Position numbers and translations under genes: made by a program. This document shows, one piece after another, positions 1 to 64,000 of a stretch of 64,000 nucleotides of DNA (its first letter is position 1; each line of letters starts with the position of its first letter). The stretch is from an uncultured Verrucomicrobiae bacterium. GTDB taxonomy: Bacteria; Verrucomicrobiota; Verrucomicrobiia; Palsa-1439. The stretch lies in contig CAWIJG010000002.1 in the NCBI GenBank assembly GCA_963836315.1, positions 867,001 through 931,000 on the forward strand. The letters run 5' to 3'. The notes beneath the pieces were generated by a model that was not told the origin of the DNA, ran no database searches, and was given only the letters and a program-made list of their open reading frames with translations.

Positions 1-362
1 GGATGGTGGTTTCTTGGTTCATGGTGTGTCCTTTTAACTCACACACTTATCCACACCAAGTGTCCACCAAATCGGGGCAAGGGCAGTTTACACTGGCCAG
101 CCACGGAGTGAATTCTTACCATCAGAGACTCGATCTGCTGCCCTCGTACTTCAAATTCCATCCACGCATCACCAGTCCCGCCGCCCGCTTTTCGTTATCA
201 TTCTGAGCCGACGCTCCGCCACGTCCCCGGCCGCCTCCCCGCTCCGAGTCGTTTGCGGAACTGAATTCTGGTTCTTCCTTCAACCTCCCGTCTCCCGGCT
301 CGCGTGTCGTTTACGGAGTCTGTCTCCTGAATCCTCTCGCTCCACACCACCCGTCGCCCGCC

Positions 363-389
363 ATGATATGCTCCAGTGGAGCATATCAT
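363..389. repeat. 27-bp perfect palindrome ATGATATGCTCCA-G-TGGAGCATATCAT (13-bp arms)
   Basis: Read directly: 363-375 is the exact reverse complement of 377-389. Lies in an ORF-poor region. Confidence 0.9.
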
Positions 390-499
390 TCAAAAGGGGG
401 GAGTCGTTGACCTCTGACATATTCCGGTTTGCAGGCCGCTCAGTCCCTTACCCCGCCTCTTTCCGATCATCGTCCCTCAATGCCACAGCCGAATGCCTG

Positions 500-520
500 A
501 GACATCAGTATCTGATGTCT
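500..520. repeat. Inverted repeat / hairpin AGACATCAG-tat-CTGATGTCT (9-bp arms, 3-nt spacer)
   Basis: Read directly from sequence; arms are exact reverse complements. Confidence 0.8.
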
Positions 521-931
521 GAAGCCGGGCGTTGTCCCGATTTGAACTGGCTAAATTCAGCTTCCAGTCGCATTCTCTCGTCAAGCCAGCCAGGGCATGG
601 TGATAATCAGGAGCGTTTATGAAGTTCAGAATAATCCTGCCGAGTATCTACGCGATTCTTTACATCAATATCGGTTATTGTGGTGCTCACCGCGAAGGGG
701 ATGTTTGCGGGGTTTTGGTCAATTTGTGTGACTACTCCCTGGAGTGAACTTCTGCCATTGTTGCTCTATAAACTCTTTGAACCGCTTCCCCCGAATCCGT
801 GGTTTACGTGGTCTGTTCAAATCGCTTTTGCCGCATTCAACGGGCTGATTTATTTCTTTACTGGGTGGGGAATTGATAGCTGGCTGGCGTCGCGCAAACG
901 GTAGTTATCGCACCATCTACCACACGGGAAG

Positions 932-974
932 CCGAGTCCGACGGAGCCGAAACGAAGCTAAACCGAGTCCGACG
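932..974. repeat. 12-bp direct repeat CCGAGTCCGACG, two copies (932-943 and 963-974)
   Basis: Read directly; copies are identical and 31 bp apart, within the ORF-poor leader region. Confidence 0.7.
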
Positions 975-981
975 AGATGCC

Positions 982-1003
982 CTATCGGGCAAACGCCCGA
1001 TAG
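982..1003. repeat. Inverted repeat / hairpin CTATCGGGC-aaac-GCCCGATAG (9-bp arms, 4-nt spacer)
   Basis: Read directly; exact reverse-complement arms. No U-tract on either strand, so not a canonical terminator. Confidence 0.8.
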
Positions 1004-1266
1004 AGCAAATGCCGCACGTCGTACTCCCGCGGCAACCTCTGGCGCGACGGCGGACCCGCGTCCCCCGTCCCGATAGATGTCACGTGTCCGGCTGACGAAC
1101 CCACGCATCGTCAGACGAACCGTCTTGCCACCTCAACTCGCCGTGCGAAAAGCTTTATCCGCCTAAAAAGCCGTGCCCGACGACAGCACCCAGTCCGCCA
1201 ACAGGGTTTTGACACTGAAACTCTTCTTCTTGGTCTTATTATTGACAGTTTCACTGGCCGTGGCAC

Positions 1267-4974: not shown

Positions 4975-5885
4975 TCACGCATCACTTGTCCCGGTGGCAC
5001 CGGAGGATTCTCCGGGGCGGTTCAGAAGGCGGTTGATCAGACCGCCGAGGCCGTGATCGGGTTCTGTATCGCCTCGCACCACTAGCACGGGTAATTCGGC
5101 ACGGTTGACGATTTCGCGGGTGATGTTGCCCATGATGTACCGGCGCAGCCGATCATGAGCAGGACAGGAACCGGACACTACCAAGCCGTATTCCGTGCGC
5201 TGCAATTCTGCCAGTAATTGATCCAGAACCAGGCCGTGTCGCAGGTGTACTTCGCACGGAACCGCCATCTTCTCGAGCAGCTCCTTCTGGTAGCGCAGGC
5301 AGCGACCGAGTTTGGAACTCGATTGCAGGATCTGGTCGACATCCTCTTCCGACTTGACCAGATTGGCATAGACGGCCGGCGGTTCCGCCAGAACGTGCAG
5401 CAAATCAACCGTCGTATTCACACACCGCGCAATCTCCCCGGCCATTTGCACCGCCGCGTCCGCTTTATGCGTGCCGCCATCGCATACCAGAATGCGACGC
5501 AGTTGGGTGCAATCGCCGATGACCACCAGCACCGGCGGTTCGACCGATTCGATGATCTTGTAGGCGCGGGCCGACACCCACAACGGTCCCCGGTCCCTTT
5601 GCGTACCGCCCCGACCACCACGAGATCGTATTTGGCCTCCCGCGTCCGCTTGATGATCTCACGCACGGGGCGGCCGGCCTTGGTGATCAACTCGGCATTG
5701 AGATGATACTCCTTCAGGATTTCTTGCGCTCGTCGAAGCGCCTGCAACACCGTGTCCTCCTGGCCCGCCTTTTCGACAATTCCCAGGATCGATGCCTCCG
5801 CCTGGCATGCCGCCGCAATCGATGCGCCAAATCGCACCGCGTTCTCCGCCTGGATTGAACCGTCGCTGCAGAAAAGGATTTTCAT
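4975..5885 (-). CDS. Tandem universal stress protein (two UspA domains), interrupted by an apparent 1-bp frameshift
   Basis: Domain 1 (MKILFCSDGS...DLVVVGA) is in the frame starting 5885. After a frame change within 5583-5612, the other frame continues the same domain (...VSARAYKIIESVEPPVLVV) and a full second domain (RRILVCDGG...ELPVLVVRGD). C4 runs at 5588-5591 and 5609-5612. Confidence 0.7.
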
Positions 5886-27215: not shown

Positions 27216-29342
27216 ATGTTTTCGAAAATCGGTCCGGTCGCGTTATTGGCGGGCCTATTGGCTGCCTGCTCCACCGTAAAGCACCCTTCGGTCACCCACA
27301 TGGATTCCCTCCAAGAGTTTCAGAAACGCGCCGGCCGGTTCCACAGCATCATCACCGTGCCGACATTTGAGACAACGACGAACGAAGTCCAGGGGTCGGT
27401 GAAGCAAGCCATTGTTTCCGGCAACGTGGCCCTTGACCGCATCGGCAAACTCGGCCCGGGCGAAGTGACGTTCACCAACACCGTGCGGGCGCTCGATGAT
27501 CTCGAGTTTCAACTCGGTCTCGTGGACAATCGGCTCTCGCTCATCAAGGAAACCAGCACGGACGCTGCTGTCCGCGACGCCGCGACGGACTCGCTGAAAG
27601 AACTTGAGGAATGGATGGTGAGCCTAGACTATCGTGAGGACGTTTATCGCGCCGTCAAGGCCTATGCCGACACCAAGCCCCGACTGGAAGGCGAGGACGC
27701 CAAGCTTCTTTCCGAAACCATGCGCGACTACCGCCGGGCCGGGCTGGAGTTGCCCAAGGCCGACCGCGACGAAGTCGAGCGGATGCGCAAGGAACTGTCG
27801 CGGTTGACGACCGATTTCGACACCGACATCACGAAGGCGGAAAAGTCGCTCAAGTTTACGAAGGCGGAACTCGACGGCGTGCCGGAAGATTTTCTGAAGC
27901 AAATCAAGTCCGGCGACGATGAGTACACCGTGATGGCGAACATCACCTGGCATTACATCACCGTCATGGACAACGCCACGCGTGAGGACACGCGGAAACG
28001 GTTGTATATCGAGCAGAGTAATCTGGCGAAGGAAGAAAATGTGCCGTTGCTCGAAAAAATTCTCCCATTGCGCGACGACATCGCCAAAAAACTCGGCTAC
28101 AAGACTTGGGCGGATTACCAAACCGAAGTCAAGATGGTCGAAAACGCGGCCACGGCCATCCGCTTCCTGGAAGATCTGAAAACCGGCTTGCAGCCCAAGT
28201 TCCGCGCCGAGTTGGAGGAGTTTCGCCAACTCAAAGTCAAGGAGACCGGCGACACGAACGCGACAATCAACGTCTGGGACTGGCGGCATTACAGCAACCA
28301 GTTGAAGAAGGACAAGTACAACGTGGATGCCGAGCAATTGCGCGTTTACTTCCCGTATCAGCACGTGCTCGAAGGTATGTTCACCATTTACCAGAGTATC
28401 TTTGGATTGAAGTTCGAGCGCGTCGATCCGCCGTACAAGTGGATCGGTGATTTGCAGCTCTACACCGTGTCGGACGCGAACACCGGCGAACCGCTCGGTT
28501 TGTTCTACCTCGATATGTTCCCGCGCGAAGGGAAATACAATCACTTCGCCGAATTCGGCATCATTGACGGCAAGTTGTTGCCGGATGGAAGGTACCAACG
28601 GCCCACCGCCGCGCTGGTCTGCAATTTCCCGGCGCCCACGACCGATCATCCTTCATTGATGTCGCATGATGACGTGGTGACCATCTTCCACGAATTCGGC
28701 CACGCCATGCACTCAATCCTGACCCGTGCGAAATACAGCCGCTTCGCCGGCACAAGCGTGCCACGCGATTTCGTCGAAGCCCCGTCGCAAATGCTCGAGA
28801 ACTGGCCGTGGGACAAGAAGGTTCTGGACCGTTTTGCGGCTGACTACCGCGATCCGTCGAAGAAAATCCCCCCGGCGATTCTCGCCAGCCTCAAGGAAGC
28901 CCGCCTCGCCACCGAAGGCACGCGGTACGAGCGTCAGCTCTCATTCTCGCTGCTGGATCTGGCGTTGCACACCCAAATCCACGACACCAACGCCCAAGAT
29001 GTTGTGAAACTGTCTAATCAGGTGCTCAGCGAGGTGTTCCTGCCGGTTCCCGATGACACGGCGTTCGTCGCGTACTTTGGCCACTTGATGGGCTACGACG
29101 CCGGCTATTACGGCTATGCGTGGGCTGACGCGATCGCCGCTGACATGAACACGGTGTTCGAGAAAGCACCCGACGGCCACCTTGACAGGCAGGCGGGCAT
29201 GCGGCTGCGCAAGGAAATCTACGAGCCCGGGGATTCCCGCGACGTGAACATCTCCATCGAGAAATTCCTCGGCCGCCCGCGCTCGATCGAGCCGTTCCTG
29301 AAGAGGATCGGGATTGGCGGCGAATCCACCAAGAGCCCGTGA
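27216..29342 (+). CDS. M3-family zinc metallopeptidase (oligopeptidase A / Dcp-like), lipoprotein
   Basis: HEXXH zinc motif (TIFHEFGHAMHS). Start placed at ATG 27216 with lipobox LLAGLLAAC; the track starts at an upstream TTG. Confidence 0.85.
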   Translation: MFSKIGPVALLAGLLAACSTVKHPSVTHMDSLQEFQKRAGRFHSIITVPTFETTTNEVQGSVKQAIVSGNVALDRIGKLGPGEVTFTNTVRALDDLEFQLGLVDNRLSLIKETSTDAAVRDAATDSLKELEEWMVSLDYREDVYRAVKAYADTKPRLEGEDAKLLSETMRDYRRAGLELPKADRDEVERMRKELSRLTTDFDTDITKAEKSLKFTKAELDGVPEDFLKQIKSGDDEYTVMANITWHYITVMDNATREDTRKRLYIEQSNLAKEENVPLLEKILPLRDDIAKKLGYKTWADYQTEVKMVENAATAIRFLEDLKTGLQPKFRAELEEFRQLKVKETGDTNATINVWDWRHYSNQLKKDKYNVDAEQLRVYFPYQHVLEGMFTIYQSIFGLKFERVDPPYKWIGDLQLYTVSDANTGEPLGLFYLDMFPREGKYNHFAEFGIIDGKLLPDGRYQRPTAALVCNFPAPTTDHPSLMSHDDVVTIFHEFGHAMHSILTRAKYSRFAGTSVPRDFVEAPSQMLENWPWDKKVLDRFAADYRDPSKKIPPAILASLKEARLATEGTRYERQLSFSLLDLALHTQIHDTNAQDVVKLSNQVLSEVFLPVPDDTAFVAYFGHLMGYDAGYYGYAWADAIAADMNTVFEKAPDGHLDRQAGMRLRKEIYEPGDSRDVNISIEKFLGRPRSIEPFLKRIGIGGESTKSP

Positions 29343-29345
29343 CCG

Positions 29346-30980
29346 ATGCGACGGAATCGGCGAAAGGCGTGGTGTGGGTGCGGGCTTTTCCTGTTCCTGG
29401 TGCTATTACTCACAGGCTGCAGTCGGCGCGAGACCCGCGTCGAAGTGGGTGATCGGGCGCAGATCCTCTATGAAGGCAACGGCGGAGAACCGCAGGAGCT
29501 TGATCCGCATATTGTCACCGGGGTTTCCGAGCAACGCCTTCTGATGACATTGCTGGAGGGCTTGTTGAGCCAGGATCCGGTGGATTTCCATCCTATTCCT
29601 GGCGTGGCAGAGAAATGGGACATCTCGCCGGATGGGAAGATCTACACATTTTATCTGAGAAGGGATGCGCGCTGGTCAAATGGCGACCCGGTTACCGCCC
29701 ACGACTTCTGGGAATCCTACAAGCGAATCCTCGCGCCGTCGCTGGCGGCCGAGTATGCCTACATGCTGTTTCCCGTAACCAACGCACAAGCGTACAATGA
29801 AGGCAAGATCACGGACTTCAACCAAGTTGGTTTCAAGGTGCTGGATGACTACGCGTTTCAAATCACCCTGGAGAACCCGACTCCCTATTTGCTGTCAGTC
29901 ATCAATTACCATTCTTCCTGGATGCCAGTACATATGCCGACCCTTCGAAAATATGGGGACCCGTATCAGCGCGGGAACAAATGGACGCGTGCGGGGCGCT
30001 TTGTCGGCAACGGCCCGTTTGTGCTGTCACAATGGAGAGTCAATGACGTCGTCGTGGTAAAGAAGAGTCCGACCTATTGGGACCGGGGCCGCGTGCGTCT
30101 CAACGAGATTCATTTTTTGCCCATCGAGAGCGACGACACGGAAGAGCGGGCGTTTCGCGCCGGGCAGCTTCACATTACGGAAACCTTGCCGTTGACGAAG
30201 ATCGATTTCTACAAAAAGAATTATCCCGACCTGCTGGACATTGAGCCCTATCTCGGGACGTATTTCTATCGCATCAATGTCACCAGGCCGCCGCTCAACG
30301 ATAAGCGCGTGCGCCGCGCGCTGGCCCTGACAATCGACCGCAAAAGCCTTGTGGAAGATGTTTTGCGGGGCGGCCAACTGCCGGCGTTCTGTCTGACGCC
30401 TCCCGGCACGGGGGGCTACACGTCCCGCACGCAATTGCACGAAGACATCGCGGAAGCGAAACGATTGCTGGCCGAAGCCGGTTATCCGGACGGGAAAGGG
30501 TTTCCGCCAATCGAACTTCTTTATAACACCGTGGAAGCGCACCGCATCATCGCGGAGTCGATTCAGCAAATGTGGAAGAAGAACCTTGGCATTGATGCGC
30601 GGCTCGTGAACCAGGAATGGAAGGTCTATCTCGATGCACAGCGTACGCTGAGTTATCAGGTTTGCCGCGCTTCGTGGATCGGCGATTACGTCGATCCCAA
30701 CACCTTCCTCGATATGTGGCTGACCGGGGGGGGAACAATGAAACCGGCTGGTCGAATCTCCAATACGATCACCTCATCGCTGAAGCCGCCCGCACCACAG
30801 ACCCGCAGCAGCGGCTGGAGGTGTTTCAAAAGGCGGAAGCTATTCTACTCGACGAACTGCCGATCATTCCCATCTATTTCTACACGCACGTCAATGCGCG
30901 GCGGCCGGAAGTCAAAGGTTGGTATCCGACACTTTTGGACTATCATCCGTATCAATATGTGTACCTGGCGCCGAACCTGA
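29346..30980 (+). CDS. Peptide ABC transporter substrate-binding lipoprotein (OppA/DppA family 5), interrupted by an apparent frameshift at a G8 run (30726-30733)
   Basis: Lipobox LLLTGC. Family-5 SBP-like body. The C-terminal ~80 aa (GNNETGWSNLQYDHLIAEAART...) reads in another frame after the G run; one added G joins the frames. Confidence 0.8.
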   Translation: MRRNRRKAWCGCGLFLFLVLLLTGCSRRETRVEVGDRAQILYEGNGGEPQELDPHIVTGVSEQRLLMTLLEGLLSQDPVDFHPIPGVAEKWDISPDGKIYTFYLRRDARWSNGDPVTAHDFWESYKRILAPSLAAEYAYMLFPVTNAQAYNEGKITDFNQVGFKVLDDYAFQITLENPTPYLLSVINYHSSWMPVHMPTLRKYGDPYQRGNKWTRAGRFVGNGPFVLSQWRVNDVVVVKKSPTYWDRGRVRLNEIHFLPIESDDTEERAFRAGQLHITETLPLTKIDFYKKNYPDLLDIEPYLGTYFYRINVTRPPLNDKRVRRALALTIDRKSLVEDVLRGGQLPAFCLTPPGTGGYTSRTQLHEDIAEAKRLLAEAGYPDGKGFPPIELLYNTVEAHRIIAESIQQMWKKNLGIDARLVNQEWKVYLDAQRTLSYQVCRASWIGDYVDPNTFLDMWLTGGGTMKPAGRISNTITSSLKPPAPQTRSSGWRCFKRRKLFYSTNCRSFPSISTRTSMRGGRKSKVGIRHFWTIIRINMCTWRRT

Positions 30981-30996
30981 ACTGATTTCGCTGACC

Positions 30997-31914
30997 ATGC
31001 TTCGTTTCATCGCCAAACGATTTCTGGAAATGATTCCGGTCCTGTTTGTGATCGCCACGATCACGTTTTTCATGGTGCGCCTCGCGCCAGGCGGACCGTT
31101 CACCACTGAAAAAACCATTCCTCCGGAGATTCAGAAGAAGATTGAAGCCTTTTACGGATTGAACAAGCCGCTCTTCCAACAGTATCTCGATTACATGGGC
31201 AACCTGCTCAAGGGTGACTTGGGGCCATCCTTCAAATACGCGACGTGGTCGGTCAACGAACTCATCTGGTCGGCCTTCCCGGTTTCCCTGGAACTCGGCT
31301 GCTACGGTCTGGCGATTGCATTGATTCTTGGACTAGGTGCGGGCATCGTCGCCTCCTTGCGCCAGAATTCGGCACTCGACCACGTCTCCATGTCACTGGC
31401 GATGGTCGGCATTTGCGTCCCGACGTTTGTATTGGGGCCATTGTTGATCCTGATGTTTGGGCTGGGGCTGGGCTGGGTCAACGCTTCCGGCTGGGATTCC
31501 GCACGTGACCGCATCCTGCCGTCGCTTACGCTGGGCGTGTTTTACGCGGCCTACATTGCGCGATTGGCGCGTAGCGGCATGCTGGAAATCCTGAACCAGG
31601 ATTTTATCCGTACGGCGCGCGCCAAGGGGGCGTCCCCCAAACGGATCATTCTCAAACACGCGCTCAAGGGCGGCCTGTTGCCGGTCGTGTCGTTCCTCGG
31701 TCCGGCCGTCGCCGATATCATCACCGGCTCGTTTGTGGTGGAAACAATTTTTCAGGTGCCCGGCCTGGGCCGGTTCTTCGTGACGGCGGCGTTCAATCGT
31801 GATTACACGATGGTGCTCGGCACGGTTCTGTTCTACGCCGTGCTGATCATTCTGCTCAACCTTGTTGTGGACATCGTTCAAGTTTGGCTGAATCCGAGAT
31901 TACGGTTTGAATAA
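30997..31914 (+). CDS. Peptide ABC transporter permease (OppB/DppB-like)
   Basis: Start at ATG 30997 (MLRFIAKRFLEMIPVLF). 6 TM, EAA-like loop region. Confidence 0.85.
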   Translation: MLRFIAKRFLEMIPVLFVIATITFFMVRLAPGGPFTTEKTIPPEIQKKIEAFYGLNKPLFQQYLDYMGNLLKGDLGPSFKYATWSVNELIWSAFPVSLELGCYGLAIALILGLGAGIVASLRQNSALDHVSMSLAMVGICVPTFVLGPLLILMFGLGLGWVNASGWDSARDRILPSLTLGVFYAAYIARLARSGMLEILNQDFIRTARAKGASPKRIILKHALKGGLLPVVSFLGPAVADIITGSFVVETIFQVPGLGRFFVTAAFNRDYTMVLGTVLFYAVLIILLNLVVDIVQVWLNPRLRFE

Positions 31915-31915
31915 G

Positions 31916-32821
31916 ATGCAACAAGCCATTGCTCCAGAGCTGCCGCAAACAACGCCCCTTATCAAAGAGGAGGCGGGCGGTTCATTGTGGCAGGACGCCT
32001 GGCACCGGCTTTGCCGGAACAGGATGGCTGTGGCCAGCGCCGTGATCCTGACCGTGCTCACGCTCCTGTCGGCGTTTGCGCCCTGGATTGCCCCGTATTC
32101 CTATGAGGAACAAAACCTTGCGCTTCGGGCCGTGCCCCCGCAAGCCGGCCATTGGCTCGGCACCGACGCCCTCGGTCGCGATCAACTCACACGCTTGTTA
32201 TATGGCGGGCGCGTGTCGCTCATGGTGGGCATCGTCGCCACGGGCGTGGCGCTGGTCATTGGTGTAACCTACGGCGCGATCTCTGGCTTTTACGGCGGCA
32301 TGGTCGATGTGGTGATGATGCGCACCGTGGACATCATCTACGCGCTGCCGTTCACGATTTTTGTCATTTTGCTGATGGTCTTTTTCGGGCGGGATATCCG
32401 GCTGTTATTTGTGGCCATCGGCGCGGTCGAATGGTTGACCATGGCGCGCATCGTGCGCGCCCAGGTGCAAGCGCTCCAAAAACAGGAATTCATCGAGGCT
32501 GCACGCGCGCTGGGGTTGCGACGGCGGCGGATCATCTTCGTGCACATGCTGCCAAACGTTATTGGCCCGATCATTGTGTATGCCACGTTGACGGTGCCGG
32601 CGGTCATGCTGCTGGAGGCGTTCCTGAGTTTCCTCGGGCTGGGAGTCCAGCCGCCGATGAGTTCGTGGGGCCTGATGATCAAGGACGGCGCGGATCGGAT
32701 GGAGGAATGTCCCTGGCTGCTCATCGCGCCGGGCGTGACGCTGGCCACGACATTGTTTTGCCTGAACTTCCTCGGCGATGGGCTGCGCGACGCGCTCGAC
32801 GTGCGGACTTCGAAGGATTGA
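31916..32821 (+). CDS. Peptide ABC transporter permease (OppC/DppC-like)
   Basis: Start at ATG 31916, 2 nt after the upstream stop. BPD-transporter-like TM core. Confidence 0.85.
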   Translation: MQQAIAPELPQTTPLIKEEAGGSLWQDAWHRLCRNRMAVASAVILTVLTLLSAFAPWIAPYSYEEQNLALRAVPPQAGHWLGTDALGRDQLTRLLYGGRVSLMVGIVATGVALVIGVTYGAISGFYGGMVDVVMMRTVDIIYALPFTIFVILLMVFFGRDIRLLFVAIGAVEWLTMARIVRAQVQALQKQEFIEAARALGLRRRRIIFVHMLPNVIGPIIVYATLTVPAVMLLEAFLSFLGLGVQPPMSSWGLMIKDGADRMEECPWLLIAPGVTLATTLFCLNFLGDGLRDALDVRTSKD

Positions 32822-32824
32822 CCC

Positions 32825-33823
32825 ATGCCCCTGCTCACCGTCACCAATCTCACCGTCTACTTCCACACACGCAACGGTGTGGTGCGCGCCGTCGAGGACG
32901 TTTCGTTTGAAATCGAGAAAGGCCAGACCGTCGCCATCGTGGGCGAATCCGGTTCCGGCAAATCCGTCACGTGCTATTCGTTAATGGGTCTGGTCTCACA
33001 GCCGCCGGGAAGAATCGAGAGCGGCTCCGCCATCTTCGACGGCAAGATCGATTTGCTGAAATGCCCGCCCCAGGAGTTGAACCGGATCCGCGGCAAGCGC
33101 ATCGCGATGATTTTCCAGGACCCGATGACGTCGCTGAATCCATATTTGCGAATTGAAGACCAGTTGATCGAGCCGCTGATGATTCACGAAGCTATCGACC
33201 GGCGCGACGCCGTCAGGCGCGGCATACGCGCGCTGGAGGAGGTCGGCGTGCCGGACGCAGCCCATCGGATTCGCGGTTACCCACACGAATTCTCCGGCGG
33301 CATGCGCCAGCGCGTTATGATCGCGATGGCGCTCATCACCCAGCCCGAATTGCTCATCGCCGATGAACCGACCACCGCGCTGGACGTCACGATCCAAGCG
33401 CAGATTCTCGATCTGTTGAAGGACCTCAAGAAGAAAACCGGCATGAGCATCCTGTTGATCACGCACAACCTCGGCATTGTTGGCGACCTTGCGGACAAAG
33501 TCGCGGTCATGTACGCGGGCCGTATTGTCGAACAAGCGCCCGCCGCCGTGCTCCTAAAAAAGCCGCTGCATCCCTACACCGTCGGATTGATGCGCTCGAT
33601 CCCCAAGCTCGGCACACACGCCAAACGACTCCAGTCGATTCCCGGGACCGTGCCGGATGCCACGCGGTTGCCGGCAGGCTGCAAGTTCCACGCGCGTTGC
33701 GACCGCGCCCAAAGCGATTGCACGCTCGATCCCGAACCGATGTTGGTCGAAGCCGACGGCAGCACACGCGATGTTCGCTGCCCCTACTGGGACAAGCCGG
33801 ATTTGAAGAGGATCATCCCATGA
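32825..33823 (+). CDS. Peptide ABC transporter ATP-binding protein (OppD/DppD-like)
   Basis: Walker A GESGSGKS, signature FSGGMRQR, C-terminal oligopeptide-type extension. Confidence 0.9.
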
Positions 33824-34743
33824 GCCTCGTCGAAGTCAACCAGCTCAAGGCGTATTTTCCGGTTCGCGCGGGCGTGCTGCAGCGTCCGGTCGGCTGGGTG
33901 CGCGCGGTGGATGGCGTGAGTCTCGCGGTCAACGAAGGGGAAACGGTCGGCCTCGTTGGCGAGAGCGGCTGTGGCAAGACCACGCTGGGACGCACGATGT
34001 TGCGTTTGATTGAACCGACCGCCGGCGAGATCCGGTTCGACGGACAGGACATCACCCAACTCGACCGGACCGGCCTGAAGCCGTTCCGCCGCAAGGCGCA
34101 GATGATCTTCCAGGATCCGTACGGCTCCCTCAACCCGCGAATGACCATTGGCAACATCATCGCCGAGCCGCTGCGCATCCATAAACTGTGCGCGAATAAG
34201 AACGGCGAACGCGAGCGGGTCGCCGAATTGCTGCGCTCGGTCGGTCTTTCGCCTGAACACGCGCGCCGCTATCCGCACGAGTTCAGCGGGGGCCAGCGCC
34301 AACGGATCGGCATCGCGCGCGCGCTCGCCGTGGAACCAAAGTTCATCATCTGCGACGAGCCCGTCAGCGCCCTCGACGTCAGTGTGCAAGCGCAGATCAT
34401 CAACTTGCTGCAGGAACTTCAGGAGAAACTCACGCTCACGTATCTGTTCATCGCCCACGATCTCGCGGTCGTCGAACATATCAGCAACCGTGTCCTGGTG
34501 ATGTACTACGGAAAGATCGTTGAGGAAGCGAGCGCTGAGGATATTTATCGCAATCCGGTTCATCCCTACACGAAAGCGCTGTTGTCCGCTGTCCCGACGG
34601 TGGAACCGTCGGAGAAGCGCCCGCGCATCATCTGGCCACCGCTGGGCACCACGGCCGACCAAGCGCGTGCTTCGCTGCAGCAGAAGAAACTCGAGCGACA
34701 CGAAGTGCGGCCGAACCATTGGGTGCTGGAGGAAATCGCCTAA
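33820..34743 (+). CDS. Peptide ABC transporter ATP-binding protein (OppF/DppF-like)
   Basis: Start ATG 33820 overlaps the upstream stop (ATGA). Walker [10 protein letters not shown], signature FSGGQRQR. Confidence 0.9.
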
Positions 34744-48513: not shown

Positions 48514-48579
48514 TCGTGCCGCTTGGGCAACTTTCTCGATAGTCAATGACCGACCTCCTAGACGGATCGCTCGTGGTCG

Positions 48580-48858
48580 TCAGGTGTTGGTCTGAGGTTC
48601 GAGGTTTTGGGGGGCAGACTCGGATGCCTTGGTTAGCCGACCGGCATGCTTGGTCGACTCTCGGACCATCGGCTGCATGAAAGTTTCCCTGATACCCGAG
48701 ACGATTTCACGCGTCACCACCAGTCCGCCGCAGGGTTGCCATCGGTTTTTCATCAACCTGTTTACTTCGGCAACCAGATTCTCAGCGGTCGAGGCGGTCG
48801 CAATCCTGTATTCTGTAAATCTCGTTGGCCGGTTTTCCGTTTTTAACCATCCAGGCAT
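48580..48858 (-). CDS. DUF1737-like small protein (tentative)
   Basis: 92 aa from ATG 48858 (MPGWLKTENRPTRFTEYRIATASTAENLVAEVNRLMKNRWQPCGGL...). The 193-aa track ORF has a low-complexity N-terminal extension that I discount. Confidence 0.4.
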   Translation of the reverse strand: MPGWLKTENRPTRFTEYRIATASTAENLVAEVNRLMKNRWQPCGGLVVTREIVSGIRETFMQPMVRESTKHAGRLTKASESAPQNLEPQTNT

Positions 48859-49783
48859 AATTTCACCACGGGAAGCAGTCGGAGATGATGGTAGCGTTTT
48901 CCGATAAGGTTGCAAGCCCAGGACGGATTTGGCAGGGCGGTGGCTTCGTACGGCCGACATTACTTTCGATTGTGGTCGGGGAGGGATGGCGTGACGAACG
49001 ATTTGCAATATTGAAGAGTTGACCCCGATGAGTGGACACGATGTGGTACTGAGGGTTTTCTGGGTCCGCACCGCGGACAAGGGCCACGCGAGATCGGGCG
49101 AGAGTCCGAGGCGTGGTCTAGAACCAGATGGGTGACTGAACAAAACAGCCAGACGAAACAACCCAGGCGCAGACAGTCAACTCGGTACGCGGTGAGAGGT
49201 TCAACCGAAGAAGAAGCAACGAAGGCTGGGAAAGCCAGTGGAGGAAACTTTTGTCTTGATCGGAACCTTTAATGGGTGCCCCCCCTACCTACCGGGGAGT
49301 GCATATCGGGAATCGATAGTTCTTGCTGGACGCGGGGGTGCGGCAGTGGTATAAGGGCGATAGTTGCTTGACATAAGATGGACGGCGTACAGAACCCATG
49401 GGAATTGCAGATTGGAGATCTCAGAGAGACGGCGAGGGAACGTCGGTTGGGAGGGGGAGGCTTCTACTAAGGTGCTTTTTGCGAAACGAAGCCAAGTTGA
49501 AAACACGTAAGTATTTGGTCATGAAGTCACTACACAAACTGGAAGGTGGGTTTGAGCGAAGAAAACGAACCCAATTGGGGGCATTTGGGGGTGGGAAATG
49601 GGTTCGTTCTGGCAGGAACGGAGCCAAAACGAAAGGAAAGGAGACAGAATTCAGCTCCGAGAAGGATTCGGATCGGGGAGTCTGAAGACAGGAGGTGGAG
49701 GGGGGCGGAAACGCGTGGTGGCGGGGTGAGGCGGGATCAATCGATGGCGCGGAGGTTGCGGTCACTTGCGGGGTGGACTGGCT

Positions 49784-50737: not shown

Positions 50738-52141
50738 CTATTCGACAATGCGCATCTGAACCGCATTGATCAGCTTATCGCGAGCAAGGATGTCGGAAAT
50801 AACCACCACTTGATCGCCCTTCGCAAGCAGGTCGCGCTCCAGAAGAGATTGCTGCGCCCGCAAAATCGTGACCTCGGGGTCTTCGCTGAACTGAATCACG
50901 TGCGGCATCACACCCCAGTAGAGATTGAGCTGGTTGCGTATCCGCTCGGAGTTTGTGAACGCAAAGATCGCCGAGTGCTCCGGTCGCAGCCACGACGTGT
51001 ATTGCGCCATGTGTCCATACCGGGTGAAGACAAGGATCCCCTTGGCTTTCAATTCATTGGCCATGACCACGGCAGAACGTACGATCTTCTGGCGTTCTTC
51101 GGCCAATTCGACCTTCTCCGCGAAACGCGCCCCCCCGCTGCGTTCAATCCGCTGGGCGATGCGGTCGAGCACTTCGAGGCATTCGAGGGGATACTTCCCG
51201 ACCGTTGTCTCACCCGAAAGCATGACCGAATCGGTCTGCTCGAACACCGCGTTCGCCACATCCGTTACCTCGGCGCGTGTCGGCATCGGATTCTCGATCA
51301 TCGACTCCAGCATGTGAGTTGCAACGATGACCGGCTTCCCGTAACGGATACACGCCTTGACCGTGCGGCGCTGGATAATCGGCAGCTCCTCGTATGGGCA
51401 TTCGATGCCGAGATCGCCCCGCGCCACCATAATGCCGTCCGCCGCATCAATCAGGTCAACCAGATTGACGACTGCCTGCTCATCTTCAATCTTGGCGATA
51501 ATCTTCGCATCGGAATCGCGGGCGCTCAGCATCTCGCGAAGCTCCACGATGTCCTTCCGCTCCCGGACAAAGGACAGCGCGATAAAATCAATCCCCAGCG
51601 AAATGCCCAGTTCGATGTCGTGCCGATCCTTTTCGGTGATCGACGGCATGTTGATCTTAACGCCCGGCAGGTTGATGTGGCGACGGGAACCGAGTTCCCC
51701 CTCCGTCAGCACCTCACATCGCATCCGCCGATGCAGCTTCTGCAACACCCGTAGCCGGATGACCCCATTATCCACCAGCACCGTATCACCTTCGTGGATG
51801 TCCTTGACGAGGTTCGGGTAATTGACGTCCACCGACTTCTCCTCTTCGCTCTGCGCGCCTTTGACCGTAAACTCAAAAATGTCGCCCGGCTTCAATTCCA
51901 GCGGAATAGGCAGGTCCCCGGTGCGAATCGCGGGGCCTTGCGTGTCCATCATGATGGCGCAGGGAATCCCGGCCGTCTCCGAGGCGGCGCGAATCCGTTG
52001 AAACACCGCGCGGGTCCACTCGTGCGTCGCATGGCTCATGTTCAACCGGGCGACGTTCATGCCCCCCCGGATCATCTTCTCCAACATTTCCGCCGACTCG
52101 ATACTCGGGCCGATCGTGCACGTGATTTTCGTGTGTCTCAT
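50738..52141 (-). CDS. pyk: Pyruvate kinase
   Basis: 467 aa: TKITCTIGPS N-terminus, ARLNMSHATHEW, MVARGDLGIE. Confidence 0.9.
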   Translation of the reverse strand: MRHTKITCTIGPSIESAEMLEKMIRGGMNVARLNMSHATHEWTRAVFQRIRAASETAGIPCAIMMDTQGPAIRTGDLPIPLELKPGDIFEFTVKGAQSEEEKSVDVNYPNLVKDIHEGDTVLVDNGVIRLRVLQKLHRRMRCEVLTEGELGSRRHINLPGVKINMPSITEKDRHDIELGISLGIDFIALSFVRERKDIVELREMLSARDSDAKIIAKIEDEQAVVNLVDLIDAADGIMVARGDLGIECPYEELPIIQRRTVKACIRYGKPVIVATHMLESMIENPMPTRAEVTDVANAVFEQTDSVMLSGETTVGKYPLECLEVLDRIAQRIERSGGARFAEKVELAEERQKIVRSAVVMANELKAKGILVFTRYGHMAQYTSWLRPEHSAIFAFTNSERIRNQLNLYWGVMPHVIQFSEDPEVTILRAQQSLLERDLLAKGDQVVVISDILARDKLINAVQMRIVE

Positions 52142-57111: not shown

Positions 57112-58473
57112 ATGGAAGATACGATCGCGGCCATTTCCACTCCCATTGGCGAAGGTGGTATCGCCATCATTCGCGTTTCCGGCCCACAGGCCTTTGACCT
57201 TGCCGACCGTGTTTTTCATTCCCGCCGCGGACGGCCGTCCGAGTTCCCCTCCCATACGCTGCACTTCGGTACCATTGGTTCGAATGGCGCCGTCATCGAT
57301 CAGGTCATGCTCGCTGTCATGCGCTCACCCCGTACGTACACGAAGGAAGACACCGTCGAGATCAATTGTCACGGCGGCGTGCTGACCGCCCGCAAAGCTC
57401 TGGCACTTTGCCTGCAAAGTGGCGCCCGTCTGGCCGAGCCCGGCGAATTTACCAAACGCGCCTTCCTGAACGGCCGCCTGGACCTGACGCAGGCGGAGGG
57501 TGTCATGGATCTGATTCGCGCCAAGTCAGATCGCGCCCATGCAGCTGCGGTTCACGAGTTGGAAGGCCATCTTTCCGCAAAAATCAACCAAGCCCGCGAC
57601 CGATTACTGACGATTCTGGCCCACATTGAAGCTCATATCGACTTCCCTGATGAAGACCTTGGCCCGGAAGTACGCGCGGATCTGCTTCGCGGCACGGAAG
57701 AAACCCTGAACTTCCTCCGGTCCCTTCTCGCAACCGCCCGCGAAGGTAAGATTCTACGCGATGGTATATCCGTCGCGATTGTCGGACGTCCCAACGTGGG
57801 TAAATCCAGCCTCCTCAATGCCCTCGTTGGGAAAGACCGATCGATTGTCACGCCGATTCCAGGAACCACGCGCGACACGATCGAAGAGAGTGCCAGCATC
57901 AAGGGCGTTCCGTTTCGATTCACGGACACAGCCGGCATTCGTCGTTCGCGAGGAGCCGCCGAAAAGCTTGGAGTTGGTCGAAGCCGTAACACGTTGGCCA
58001 CCAGTGAGATAGTGCTGCATGTGTGCGACGCCTCAAAGCCGATGACTTCCGCTGACTCCGATATCATGAGGGCCTGTCCCAATACGAATACGATACTGGT
58101 TCTGAACAAAGCAGACCTACCTCGGCGCTTTCGTTTATCGCCTGAGATTCGAGGTCGTGAGTACCTCCTTGTATCAGCGCTACGAGGGGACGGCTTGGAC
58201 GTTCTTCAAACAGAACTGCTCGATCTCGCTTATTCCGGCACCGTGGGCACCGCCGACATCGATGTTGCCATTAATACGAGACATACAGCTTCGCTTGAAG
58301 CAGCAGATAAATACTTGACAGAAGCATGCCATCAACTAAAGGAAGTTGTGGCCATTGAGATCGTCTCTCAACAGCTTCGCCTAAGTCTAGACTGCATCGG
58401 CGTGATCGTTGGTAAGACAAGCACTGATGACATGCTGGACAGGATCTTTAGCACCTTCTGCATCGGCAAATGA
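57112..58473 (+). CDS. mnmE: tRNA modification GTPase MnmE (TrmE)
   Basis: Start ATG 57112 ([11 protein letters not shown]). G-domain [15 protein letters not shown]-terminal CIGK motif. Confidence 0.9.
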
Positions 58474-60284
58474 GTAATACGTTCAGATATCCAAACCAAT
58501 ACGACGTAATCGTAATCGGTGCAGGTCACGCAGGGACAGAGGCAGCACTCGCCAGCGCACGCATGGGTTGCGAGACGCTTTTGCTGACTACAAATCTCGA
58601 TACCATCGGACAAATGTCCTGCAACCCGGCAATTGGTGGCCTCGCCAAAGGTCATCTTGCCAGGGAGATCGATGCTCTTGGTGGCGAAATGGGCATTAAC
58701 ACCGATCAGACCGGCATTCAGTTTCGGATGCTCAACACGAAAAAGGGGCCTTCCGTCTGGGCTCCGCGCGCTCAGTGCGATAAAAAGGCCTATCAATTCC
58801 GCCTTAAATGGGTCGTCGAGAAGCAATCGAGGTTGGATGTAAAGCAGGCGATGATCGATGAAATTCTTGTCGAGGGAGATAAAGTCGTCGGTGTCGTCAC
58901 GAAGATGGGTACGCGTTTCGATGGCGCAAGCGTCATCGTGACCACTGGAACGTTTCTTAGGGGTCTGATCCATATAGGGGAATCGAAGATGGAGGCAGGG
59001 CGCGCAGGTGAGCCTGCGGCTTACTCGTTGTCCGACAACCTAAAGCGTCTGGGCTTCGAACTGGGCCGCTTAAAAACTGGCACTCCTCCAAGGCTAAACA
59101 GGCGATCGATCGACTTCTCCAAGATGGATGTGCAGCCCGGAGAAGAACCAATTCCGTTCTTTTCCTACCGCACTCAGCGAACGTTCCACGTGGAACAACT
59201 GCCATGCTATCTCACATACACTACCGAAAAAACTAGAGATGTCATACAGGCCAATCTCCATCGTTCGCCCATGTACTCTGGTCAGATCGAAGGAGTAGGA
59301 CCTCGCTACTGCCCCTCAATCGAAGACAAGTTCGTGAAGTTCCCAGAAAAGGAACGCCACCAGATCTTCCTCGAGCCGGAAGGAAGAGCCACCGATGAAT
59401 TCTACGTAAACGGTGCTTCCACCAGCCTTCCAGAGGACGTTCAGATCCAGATGATCCAGACCATAGTCGGTCTTGAGAATGCGCAGATCATGCGACCTGC
59501 TTACGCCGTAGAATACGACTACAGTCTCCCTCACCAACTACACCCCACCATGGAGACAAAGCGGATTGAAAACCTCTTCTTCGCTGGCCAAATCAACGGA
59601 ACTTCAGGATATGAAGAAGCTGGTGCACAGGGCCTAATAGCCGGAATCAACGCTGCTCTGAAAATCAAAACTGCTACTCCGCTAATACTCACACGCGCAG
59701 ATGGTTACATCGGCGTGTTAATTGACGACCTCATTACCAAGAGTACTGACGAACCGTATCGGATGTTCACATCCCGAGCGGAGTACCGCCTCTTGCTCCG
59801 CCAAGACAATGCCGACCTCCGCCTCACACCCTTGGGTCGTAAGGTCTCTTTGGTCGACAATGAGCACTGGGCTCTATTTCAAGAGAAGAGCCAATCTATC
59901 GAACGAGAGCTCAGCCGCCTTAACAAACTACGGAATGCTTCATCCTCTTATGCCGAAATCCTCTGTCGACCTGAGATCACTTATAAGTCGCTCCCCATTG
60001 CCGACCCAAGTCTCCCTGACGACATTTCCCAAGAGGTGGAAATCCAGATTAAGTATGCCGGCTACATAAGGCGCGACATCGAACAGATCGGACGGTTCCG
60101 TAAGCTTGAAGACAAACGCCTTCCTGCTTGGATGGACTACAATAAAATCGACGCTCTCAGGTTCGAATCTCGTCAGAAGTTGTCTCGCTACCGCCCTGAT
60201 TCAATCGGCCAAGCATCCCGAATTCCAGGGGTCACGCCCGCTGACATCGCCATCCTTCTTGTTTGGATCAAACGGGCCGGATAG
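58470..60284 (+). CDS. mnmG: tRNA uridine-5-carboxymethylaminomethyl synthesis enzyme MnmG (GidA)
   Basis: FAD-binding N-terminus [16 protein letters not shown]. 604 aa. ATGA overlap with mnmE. Confidence 0.9.
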
Positions 60285-60288
60285 ATAG

Positions 60289-61455
60289 CTATCTTGAGTC
60301 AAGAATTAGTCTTCTGAACTCACCGAATAGAAACTCCGCATCATGTGGCCCCGGAGAGGCTTCCGGATGATACTGAACACTGAAGATTGGTAGCTTTTTG
60401 TGTCGCATCCCTTCAACTGTCTGATCATTCAGATTGATCTGTGTAATCTCGACGTCATCTTGATTCAAGCTTGCCGGGTCAACAGCGAATCCGTGGTTTT
60501 GAGCAGTGATTGAAACCTTCCCGCTCGTAAGATCCTTCACCGGTTGGTTCCCACCCCGATGCCCGAATTTCAGCTTGAAAGTCCGTCCTCCAAATGAAAA
60601 TCCCAAAATCTGATGCCCAAGACAAATCCCGAAGATCGGGACTTCACCCATCAGATCTCGTACCGCCCCGTGCGCGTAGTCCAAAGCTTCCGGGTCGCCT
60701 GGCCCGTTCGACAAAAACACACCCTGCGGCTTATAGGTGAGTACTTCACTCGCCTTGGCGGTTGCTGGTACGACCTGAACACGAAACCCGTTCTGGCGTA
60801 GTTTACGCAGAATGTTGTATTTGATGCCGAAATCGAATGCCACAATTGGAATGTCCGCTTCCGGAAGATCGTTCGCGTACTGCACTTTCCCATCGACCTT
60901 TCGCCCAATGTTCCATGCCTGACTGACCTCGTCTTCGGGGTCCCACAAAAACGCTTTCCGATGTGTGACCTCCTTCACATAATCCACACCAAGGATGCCC
61001 CGCCAGTCACGCGCTCGCTCGACTGCTTCCTGATCGCTTATCTCCTCCGTCGATATGCAGCTCTTCATGGCGCCTTTGACTCGTAAGATTTTCGTCAGCG
61101 CGCGAGTATCAATGCCTGAAACTCCGGGAATACTGTGCTTGACAAGATATTCTGGAAGAAGAGCTTCCGACCGCCAATTTGATGCCACAGCGGAAAGCTG
61201 ACGCACCACTAGCCCTGCCACGTGCGGGCGCCAACTCTCAACGTCCCTGGAATTCGTTCCACAATTCCCGATTTCCGGATACGTCATCGCAACGATCTGG
61301 CCCTTGTAAGACGGGTCGGTGAGAATCTCCTGATAGCCGGTCATCGACGTGTTGAATACAGCTTCGCCACAAGCCGAAGCCTTGGCTCCAAACCCGACCC
61401 CGCGGTACACCGTGCCATCTTCGAGGGCGAAAACTCCGTTCAATTCCGTTGCCAT
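60289..61455 (-). CDS. carA: Carbamoyl-phosphate synthase small (glutaminase) subunit
   Basis: Start ATG 61455 (MATELNGVFALEDGTVYRG). Glutamine amidotransferase triad region (GICLGHQ, HPE). Confidence 0.9.
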   Translation of the reverse strand: MATELNGVFALEDGTVYRGVGFGAKASACGEAVFNTSMTGYQEILTDPSYKGQIVAMTYPEIGNCGTNSRDVESWRPHVAGLVVRQLSAVASNWRSEALLPEYLVKHSIPGVSGIDTRALTKILRVKGAMKSCISTEEISDQEAVERARDWRGILGVDYVKEVTHRKAFLWDPEDEVSQAWNIGRKVDGKVQYANDLPEADIPIVAFDFGIKYNILRKLRQNGFRVQVVPATAKASEVLTYKPQGVFLSNGPGDPEALDYAHGAVRDLMGEVPIFGICLGHQILGFSFGGRTFKLKFGHRGGNQPVKDLTSGKVSITAQNHGFAVDPASLNQDDVEITQINLNDQTVEGMRHKKLPIFSVQYHPEASPGPHDAEFLFGEFRRLILDSR

Positions 61456-61456
61456 C

Positions 61457-62727
61457 TCATCCGTGTCCGTTCTCTCGCCAAACGACCTCACCATTCACAA
61501 TCGTCGCCAGCGCTCGCCCGCGAAGCTTCCATCCATCGAACGGTGTGTTGCGGGACTTGCTCGCAGACCGCGCGACATCGTAGGTCCACTCACGTTCCGG
61601 GTCAACGACGGTAATGTCCGCATCCACGCCAATTGCGAGCGTGCCTTTCTTCAACCCCAGCAAGCGGGCCGGGTTCATAGTGAGTTTTTCAACAAGAGCC
61701 CGCAGGTTCAGAACCTTCTTCTTCACGAGTTCCAGTGAAAGCGCCAGTTCGGTTTCCAATCCAATGATCCCGAATGGCGCGAAATCAAATTCCACTTCTT
61801 TCTCATACGTGCAGTGCGGCGCGTGATCGCTGGCAATGACTTCCAGCGTGTTGTCAGCCAACCCTTCCAAAATCGCTTCCCGGTCCCGTTCCGTGCGCAA
61901 CGGCGGATTTATTTTGAAGTTCGTGTCGTAGGTCTTCACGCACTCCTCCGTCAATGTAAAATGATGCGGACACGCTTCGCCGGAAATCTTGATGCCGCGC
62001 TTCTTTGCCTGTCGAATGAGTTCCACCGAACCCGCCGACGAAACGTGCTGACAATGGATATGCCAGTCCGTTTGCTCGGCAATCAGTATGTTTCGCGCCA
62101 CGATCACATCTTCGCCAACGGCGGGCCAGCCGCGCAACCCAAGTGCCGCGCTCCAATGGCCTTCGTTCATCACGCCATCCGCCACCAGATTGTAGTCCTG
62201 GCAATGATCCAGGAGCGGCAGGTCGAACATTTTCGCGTACTCCATCGCCCGCCGCATCAACTCGTTATTCTGCACGCAATGCCCGTCGTCGGTGATGGCC
62301 ACCACCCCCGCCTTCTTCAGCGACCCAATCGGGGCCAACTCTTCACCCTTCAGCTCCTTCGTGATCGCTCCCGTCGGGAACACGTGGACACACGCCGCCT
62401 CCGCCGCGCGCTGCTTGATGAAAGCGATGGTCCCCGTATTGTCCGCCGCCGGCGTCGTGTTGGGCATGCACACCACCGACGTGAATCCGCCACGCGCCGC
62501 GCAACGCGTCCCCGTCTCAATCGTTTCCTTGTCGCTCCGCCCCGGTTCGCGCAAATGCACGTGCATGTCGATCAACCCTGGTAAAACGATCTTTCCGGTC
62601 GCGTCGATCACCTCCGCGCCCTTCGCGGCGGTAAACGCAATCCTGCCATCCACCACCCACACGTCGCGCACCTCGTCCACGTTGCTTGCGGGATCGATTA
62701 CGCGGCCGTTCCTGATCACGAGCGAGT

Positions 62728-62731: not shown

Positions 62732-64000
<1,269 letters not shown>

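Follow-up and report, generated by a model that had tools for sequence, protein, structure and literature searches.

The opp locus and its substrate-binding protein gene

The window, which is the whole 64-kb stretch of DNA analysed here, carries an oligopeptide transport locus in which oppA, the gene for a substrate-binding protein, is preceded by a gene for an M3-family oligopeptidase and followed by oppB, oppC, oppD and oppF (Table 1). The Pfam matches across oppBCDF (30997-34743) are to BPD_transp_1, OppC_N, ABC_tran and oligo_HPY. oppA is thus linked to two permease genes and two oligo_HPY ATPase genes, an arrangement that is kept in relatives. The nearest relatives also keep the longer gene order tpiA-secG-M3 peptidase-oppA-oppBCDF-glycerate kinase, with an unbroken oppA in each of them.

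As assembled, oppA is an ORF of 544 aa on the forward strand (29346..30980), which opens with a lipoprotein signal peptide, MRRNRRKAWCGCGLFLFLVLLLTG/C, the lipobox being read directly from the translation. The 5' part alone gives a strong match to SBP_bac_5 (Pfam PF00496; aa 83-461, profile positions 2-363 of 368, E 2e-94). When the frame is repaired as described below, many sequences from Verrucomicrobiia MAGs that are annotated as 'peptide ABC transporter substrate-binding protein' match the protein over 98-100% of its length, at 81-89% identity. The repaired protein is also collinear with solved OppA structures: aa 32-526 align with residues 7-498 of 2z23 (E 4e-114), and the alignments to 3tcf and 1b05 are similar (E~1e-114).

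The gene product therefore shares with known OppA proteins of SBP family 5, cluster C (Yersinia pestis 2z23, E. coli 3tcf, Salmonella 1b05) a full-length alignment, the SBP_bac_5 domain and the downstream oppBCDF genes. In the junction region discussed below, the known OppA segment WCADYNEPSSFLNMMLSNSSNNTTHY aligns to SWIGDYVDPNTFLDMWLTGGGNNETGW of the window. Unlike the known OppAs, which are free in the periplasm, the window protein is lipid-anchored (lipobox LLTGC) and of Verrucomicrobiia origin. Its gene also differs in being paired with the upstream M3 oligopeptidase gene and, as assembled, in carrying a frameshift that removes the last 82 aa. Judging by homology and by the adjacent M3 peptidase gene, the product probably binds oligopeptides. 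No second SBP_bac_5 gene was found in the 64-kb window when it was searched with the repaired protein by tblastn.

Table 1. Coordinates of the opp locus, of the oppA frame break and of the two other broken genes in the window.
Feature	Position	Strand	Remarks
Tandem Usp gene	4975..5885	-	fragments 5418..5885 and 4975..5583; break at coding-strand GGGG (+ strand CCCC 5588-5591)
pgk	24565..25763	+	split at G7 25067-25073; fragments end at 25083 and start at 25092; one added G gives a 399-aa PGK
M3-family oligopeptidase gene	27207..29342	+	Pfam Peptidase_M3, E 2e-119; directly upstream of oppA; position kept in relatives
oppA in-frame 5' part, aa 1-462	29346..30733	+	signal peptide, lipobox LLTG/C at Cys25, SBP_bac_5 domain; ends in the Gly-Gly-Gly tract
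G8 homopolymer, frame-break site	30726..30733	+	inferred intact state G9 (GGG GGG GGG = Gly-Gly-Gly)
oppA 3' part in shifted frame, true C-terminal 82 aa	30734..30985	+	NNETGWSNLQYDHLIAEAART...APNLN, then stop
Out-of-frame tail of the assembled ORF	30734..30980	+	TMKPAGRISNT...WRRT, then stop
oppB	30997-31914	+	intact, full length; Pfam
oppC	31907-32821	+	intact, full length; Pfam
oppD	32825-33823	+	intact, full length; Pfam
oppF	33820-34743	+	intact, full length; Pfam

The oppA frame breaks at a G8 tract

An earlier note on this DNA, made from its sequence, had proposed that a peptide-binding protein gene is frameshifted at a run of eight Gs. This break is seen in the sequence, where the DNA at 30726-30733 reads GGGGGGGG. 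The tract is the longest G/C run and the sole G8/C8 in the 64-kb window, and it occupies codons 462-464 of 546, that is, a point 85% along the ORF. After ...DMWLTGGG the assembled ORF does turn to nonsense as described, continuing for 82 codons that are unrelated to OppA. The conserved OppA continuation, NNETGWSN...LN, is found in the neighbouring frame (ORF 30617..30985) and ends with a stop at 30985. The note had this conserved C-terminus start from inside the G run, and that is where the two tblastn HSPs of the repaired protein against the window join (aa 1-464 in frame 3, and aa 462-546 in frame 2 with 100%). Adding one G to the G8 gives a continuous OppA-like protein, again as proposed, with a length of 546 aa. 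The codon model likewise moves from phase 2 to phase 1 precisely at the G8, with a score of 14.8 in the 3' frame.

The ORF 30617..30985 (122 aa) was also considered as a separate gene. This was rejected, as the coding signal is in that frame only past the G tract, and as the conserved portion of the ORF is the OppA C-terminus.

The out-of-frame ORF stops just 5 nt ahead of the native oppA stop, and thus no polar effect on oppB, or on oppBCDF as a whole, would be expected were the break real. A real frameshift would however leave a product without the last 82 residues, which align to structured parts of OppA (~434-498 of 2z23), and such a truncated protein would probably not fold.

The G8 run alone is no statistical anomaly. 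GGG makes up 20% of the Gly codons in the window, so that three successive GGG codons are an unremarkable chance event. Compared with dinucleotide shuffles, long runs are rarer in the window, not enriched (G8/C8: 1 observed against a mean of 3.09; G7/C7: 6 observed against 11.06 expected). What is non-random is the coincidence of frame breaks with G runs.

The intact state of the tract in relatives and metagenomes

The junction was compared at both the protein and DNA levels. At the protein level, a junction motif pattern matched 93 of 120 listed homologues. DMWLTGGG stands ahead of NNETGWSN in 52 of these 93 motif-matched sequences, and most of the others retain GGG with one or two substitutions nearby. 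At the DNA level, the junction was mapped by tblastn in 80 related genomic loci. In all 80, oppA is read through without a change of frame, and T is separated from NN by three residues. The G run at the site is at most 5 in every one of the 80 loci, the usual codons being GGC GGC GGC. In the closest allele (P0001/L081), which is 89% identical in aa and 83% in nt, this position reads GGC GGT GGA.

Removal of two Gs would also bring the tract back in frame, and G6 was therefore considered as the intact state. It was rejected since T and NN would then be separated by just two residues, where three are conserved. Thus, the three-residue spacing in relatives indicates G9, not G6, as the intact state of the tract.

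Two patterns were searched for in 241 million metagenome records. Neither the exact flanks with a gap of 6-10 nt nor a codon-degenerate pattern with G8 or longer at the site had a match in these records. Together with its absence from the 80 relatives, this indicates that the long tract is private to the window sequence.

Three genes in the window carry the same type of break

To follow the reading frame through the window, a codon-usage model was trained on its long ORFs, and the best coding frame was followed along both strands. In a census of ~56 genes with clean boundaries, only three in-gene same-strand frame switches were found: in oppA, in pgk and in a gene for a tandem Usp. All three are mended by exactly one added G on the coding strand, in agreement with the remark in the earlier note that the direction of the error in oppA is the same as in the other two genes. 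Other same-strand switches (at 10-21 kb, 36-39 kb, 52.7 kb and 54.4 kb) are ordinary boundaries between genes of different families and were discarded as candidates. Another approach, in which homopolymers of at least 5 were changed by +/-1 base and scored for ORF lengthening, was too noisy at 59% GC, and the codon-usage model was used instead. The lengthening approach flags pgk and misses oppA, as the out-of-frame tail of oppA stays open for 82 codons.

pgk is central to glycolysis and belongs to the conserved cluster pgk-tpiA-secG. The Pfam PGK profile is shared out between its two fragments (profile positions 2-163 and 165-379). Relatives have KKRGG(N/K)C(V/A)AGFL at the junction, and given this RGG the window pgk is precisely one G short of CGG GGG GGG. 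The tandem Usp gene was located by the frame model and Pfam. Its two overlapping fragments both match Pfam Usp, and one added base gives a two-domain protein of 303 aa. The break lies at just four Gs, fewer than would be expected of an error that depends purely on homopolymer length.

Not every long run in the window is broken. The two in-frame G7 tracts on the pyk coding strand (51130-51136 and 52062-52068) are called correctly, as are one A7 and one T8 (63217-63224).

Divergence of oppA

The 82-aa tail of oppA is without decay. Its identity to 30 homologues is 83% after the break compared with 80% before it, a ratio like that among the homologues themselves (91% after the break position, 88% before). 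In a relative-rate comparison, the window oppA is no farther from the outgroup alleles than the intact sister allele L001, so that no acceleration is seen. For oppBCDF and all other genes tested, the Pfam profiles are matched end to end, which indicates a genome that is not in decay.

Within the locus, oppA evolves fastest. For instance, L004 and L007 are 87% identical in oppA and 95-99% in the neighbouring genes. The flanking genes of the window are nearest to those of L003 (92-97%), whereas the window oppA is nearest to L001 and P0001 (86-89%) and just 82% identical to L003. This pattern suggests that oppA alleles may have been exchanged between lineages. The low identity to L003 was also considered as a sign of decay. 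However, oppA is fast-evolving in intact relatives too, and the window allele groups with the intact alleles L001 and P0001; the decay reading was therefore rejected.

A homopolymer undercall as the probable source of the break

The oppA frameshift is probably an undercall of a homopolymer in the consensus, in a gene that is otherwise intact, and of a kind shared with pgk and Usp. Under this explanation oppA would be an ordinary, functional gene for the lipoprotein substrate-binding component of an OppABCDF oligopeptide ABC importer, beside its M3 oligopeptidase gene. The true sequence would be G9, coding for the conserved Gly-Gly-Gly, and the G8 of the window would be a one-base undercall of the G homopolymer, with the missing G present in the DNA and absent from the assembly. 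The same error process would have broken pgk (G7 for G8) and the tandem Usp gene (G4 for G5). As pgk is essential and is broken in the same way nearby, along with Usp, the oppA break is most likely to come from sequencing or assembly and not from biology. The frameshift is no novel feature, and the gene is an ordinary OppA.

Undercalls of this type are typical of long-read (Nanopore-type) or flow-based sequencing, which may be where the window defects arose. In Nanopore assemblies, the main documented error of the consensus is the homopolymer indel, which shifts the frame and splits gene calls; at lengths 8-9 the accuracy of homopolymer calling depends on the nucleotide, and polishing is needed for bins with less than ~40x coverage (PMC9262707). 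The MFD long-read MAGs were assembled with Flye from Nanopore reads only and polished once with Medaka, and their authors warn of Nanopore-associated errors at low coverage and in homopolymers >6 (PMC12313526). Both Nanopore-only MFD MAGs among the relatives have a frameshifted pgk, L002 three times and L004 once, at sites that differ from that of the window. Their pgk fragments are 83-90% identical to the window protein and are without decay. pgk is in a single frame in four other related MAGs (L003, L006, L007 and L032).

The window thus resembles known cases of Nanopore homopolymer-indel error in its single-base deletion in a G run, in having several breaks of the same direction on one contig with an essential gene among them, in the lack of sequence decay, and in the same symptom appearing in Nanopore-only relatives. 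It differs from typical cases in that the two G7 tracts of pyk are called correctly and in that the Usp break is at a run of four; these two points speak against an undercall. The anatomy of the break, its repair by a single G, its conservation pattern and its co-occurrence with identical defects in other genes are matters of direct observation, and Nanopore error as the source of the defects is suggested by analogy.

One of the pgk breaks is shared by the two MFD relatives (L002:1313-2508 and L004:1186-2383). It is at the same codon position in both, VIEN/LLTQ, in the context ATCGAGAA. L002 has two further pgk breaks, and none of the sites in the MFD relatives is a long homopolymer. The break at a common site could point to a context-specific basecalling error, possibly related to methylation.

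The main import of an undercall concerns data quality, in that the genes would be intact and the assembly in need of homopolymer polishing. Read literally, the breaks would suggest that the organism has lost peptide uptake, glycolysis (pgk) and a stress protein, and would tempt one to propose phase variation. Frameshifts should be corrected before genes are called or metabolism is reconstructed from this contig or from comparable long-read MAGs in the clade.

Alternative explanations

The frameshift could instead be real, recent and non-adaptive, arising from a slipped-strand deletion in G9, perhaps in a background deficient in mismatch repair, in which case oppA would be a young pseudogene. 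Replication slippage would hit the longest G run, and since real slipped-strand mutations also concentrate in the longest G runs, location alone does not separate error from mutation. The absence of decay would also fit a very recent event, and the lack of a second SBP gene in the window argues neither way. However, this explanation needs pgk and Usp to have been inactivated recently and at the same time by one-base deletions of the same kind, and strong selection against the loss of pgk is to be expected. Elsewhere, moreover, the window is densely filled with full-length genes, and both oppBCDF and the neighbouring peptidase gene are intact and keep their synteny. A real mutation therefore seems unlikely.

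Phase variation is a less plausible candidate again. Here, the G tract would be hypermutable, slipped-strand mispairing would toggle oppA between G9 (ON) and G8 (OFF), and the assembly would have caught the OFF state. As in homopolymeric-tract phase variation in Neisseria and Campylobacter and in glpK of Mycobacterium tuberculosis, the window has a G tract of at least 7 in a coding sequence, where a one-base change switches the frame (PMC11898584, PMC5084427). G8 and G9 are within the known hypermutable length range (about 7 or more G/C), and the 7-bp poly-G of glpK is a precedent in a metabolic gene of a high-GC genome (PMC11898584). The undecayed downstream part of oppA would fit a recent and reversible event, and the fast evolution of oppA and its apparent exchange between lineages could hint at diversifying pressure.

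The earlier note had raised such a switch on peptide uptake as a possibility, and the idea found no backing in any of the comparisons made (relatives, metagenomes, enrichment, position and other tracts). The tract is absent from all 80 related loci, from the closest allele L081 and from the metagenome records. Long G/C tracts are depleted in the window, unlike in known phase-variable loci, where tracts are conserved in relatives and enriched. The oppA tract is 3'-proximal, far from the 5' end of the gene, and this is a further difference from those loci. The other G7 tracts fall in pgk and pyk, which are housekeeping genes, so that no functional bias is seen. Lastly, in the window unrelated housekeeping genes are broken simultaneously, which is not the case at known phase-variable loci, and a switch dedicated to oppA would leave the pgk and Usp breaks of the same type unexplained.

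A broader version is very unlikely. Here, the G8 would be genuine, and in this uncultured soil Verrucomicrobium lineage-specific G tracts would work as reversible mutational switches (oppA G9 ON, G8 OFF) in the manner of glpK. In a stronger form, ribosomal or transcriptional slippage on G_GGG_GGA would restore the frame, so that G-tract frameshifts in oppA and pgk are tolerated. Were G8 or a mixture of G8 and G9 the true state, the locus would be of modest interest as an example of a gene switched by a homopolymer in a bacterium other than a host-associated pathogen.

Recoding is the least probable of the explanations, to the point of being barely credible. The DNA would truly be G8 (and G7 in pgk), and the full-length protein would be made through a -1 ribosomal frameshift on G_GGG_GGA or through RNA polymerase slippage that adds a G. 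An A follows both tracts, the zero frame G GGG GGA formally fits X XXY YYZ, and in oppA as in pgk a -1 slip would restore the conserved protein exactly. Poly(A)-tract frameshifts in endosymbionts are rescued by polymerase slippage. However, known slippery sites and slippage tracts repeat A or U/T, not G, and no G-only slippery site is known to function. Furthermore, the 100 nt downstream of each tract form no more stable a fold than shuffled sequences (z -0.16 for oppA, +0.33 for pgk), the frameshift is in none of the 80 relatives, contrary to what would be expected of a conserved recoding site, and the Usp break (ACC GGG GAC) misfits the heptamer.

On the other side of the tract, the 100 nt upstream (30626-30725) give a more stable fold than shuffled sequences do (z -2.59; 4 of 200 shuffles are as stable). 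This fold includes a GAUCGGCG...CGUCGAUC hairpin within the coding sequence. It is probably due to chance, and it is on the wrong side of the tract for a frameshift stimulator.

Other features of the window

Three further regions of the window stand apart in composition or coding signal. Between a gene of the Cons_hypoth95 family (Pfam PF03602) and a TPR protein gene there are 1.27 kb (48514-49783) with no coding signal in any frame. This region has no Rfam or tRNA match, as was the case throughout the 64-kb window in the Rfam and tRNA scans, and its GC skew is strongly positive (+0.2 to +0.25); it also contains a C7 run (49279-49285). At the start of the window (1-1266), the first ~1.2 kb are without coding signal in the codon model, and GC is lower, at 53.5%. 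Finally, GC falls to 51-52% at 58000-61000, compared with a window mean of 59%. Codon-model scores are weak there over mnmG (58470-60284) and carA (60289-61494), which are both highly conserved housekeeping genes. The GC drop could be natural, or could mark a chimeric join or a collapse in the metagenome assembly.
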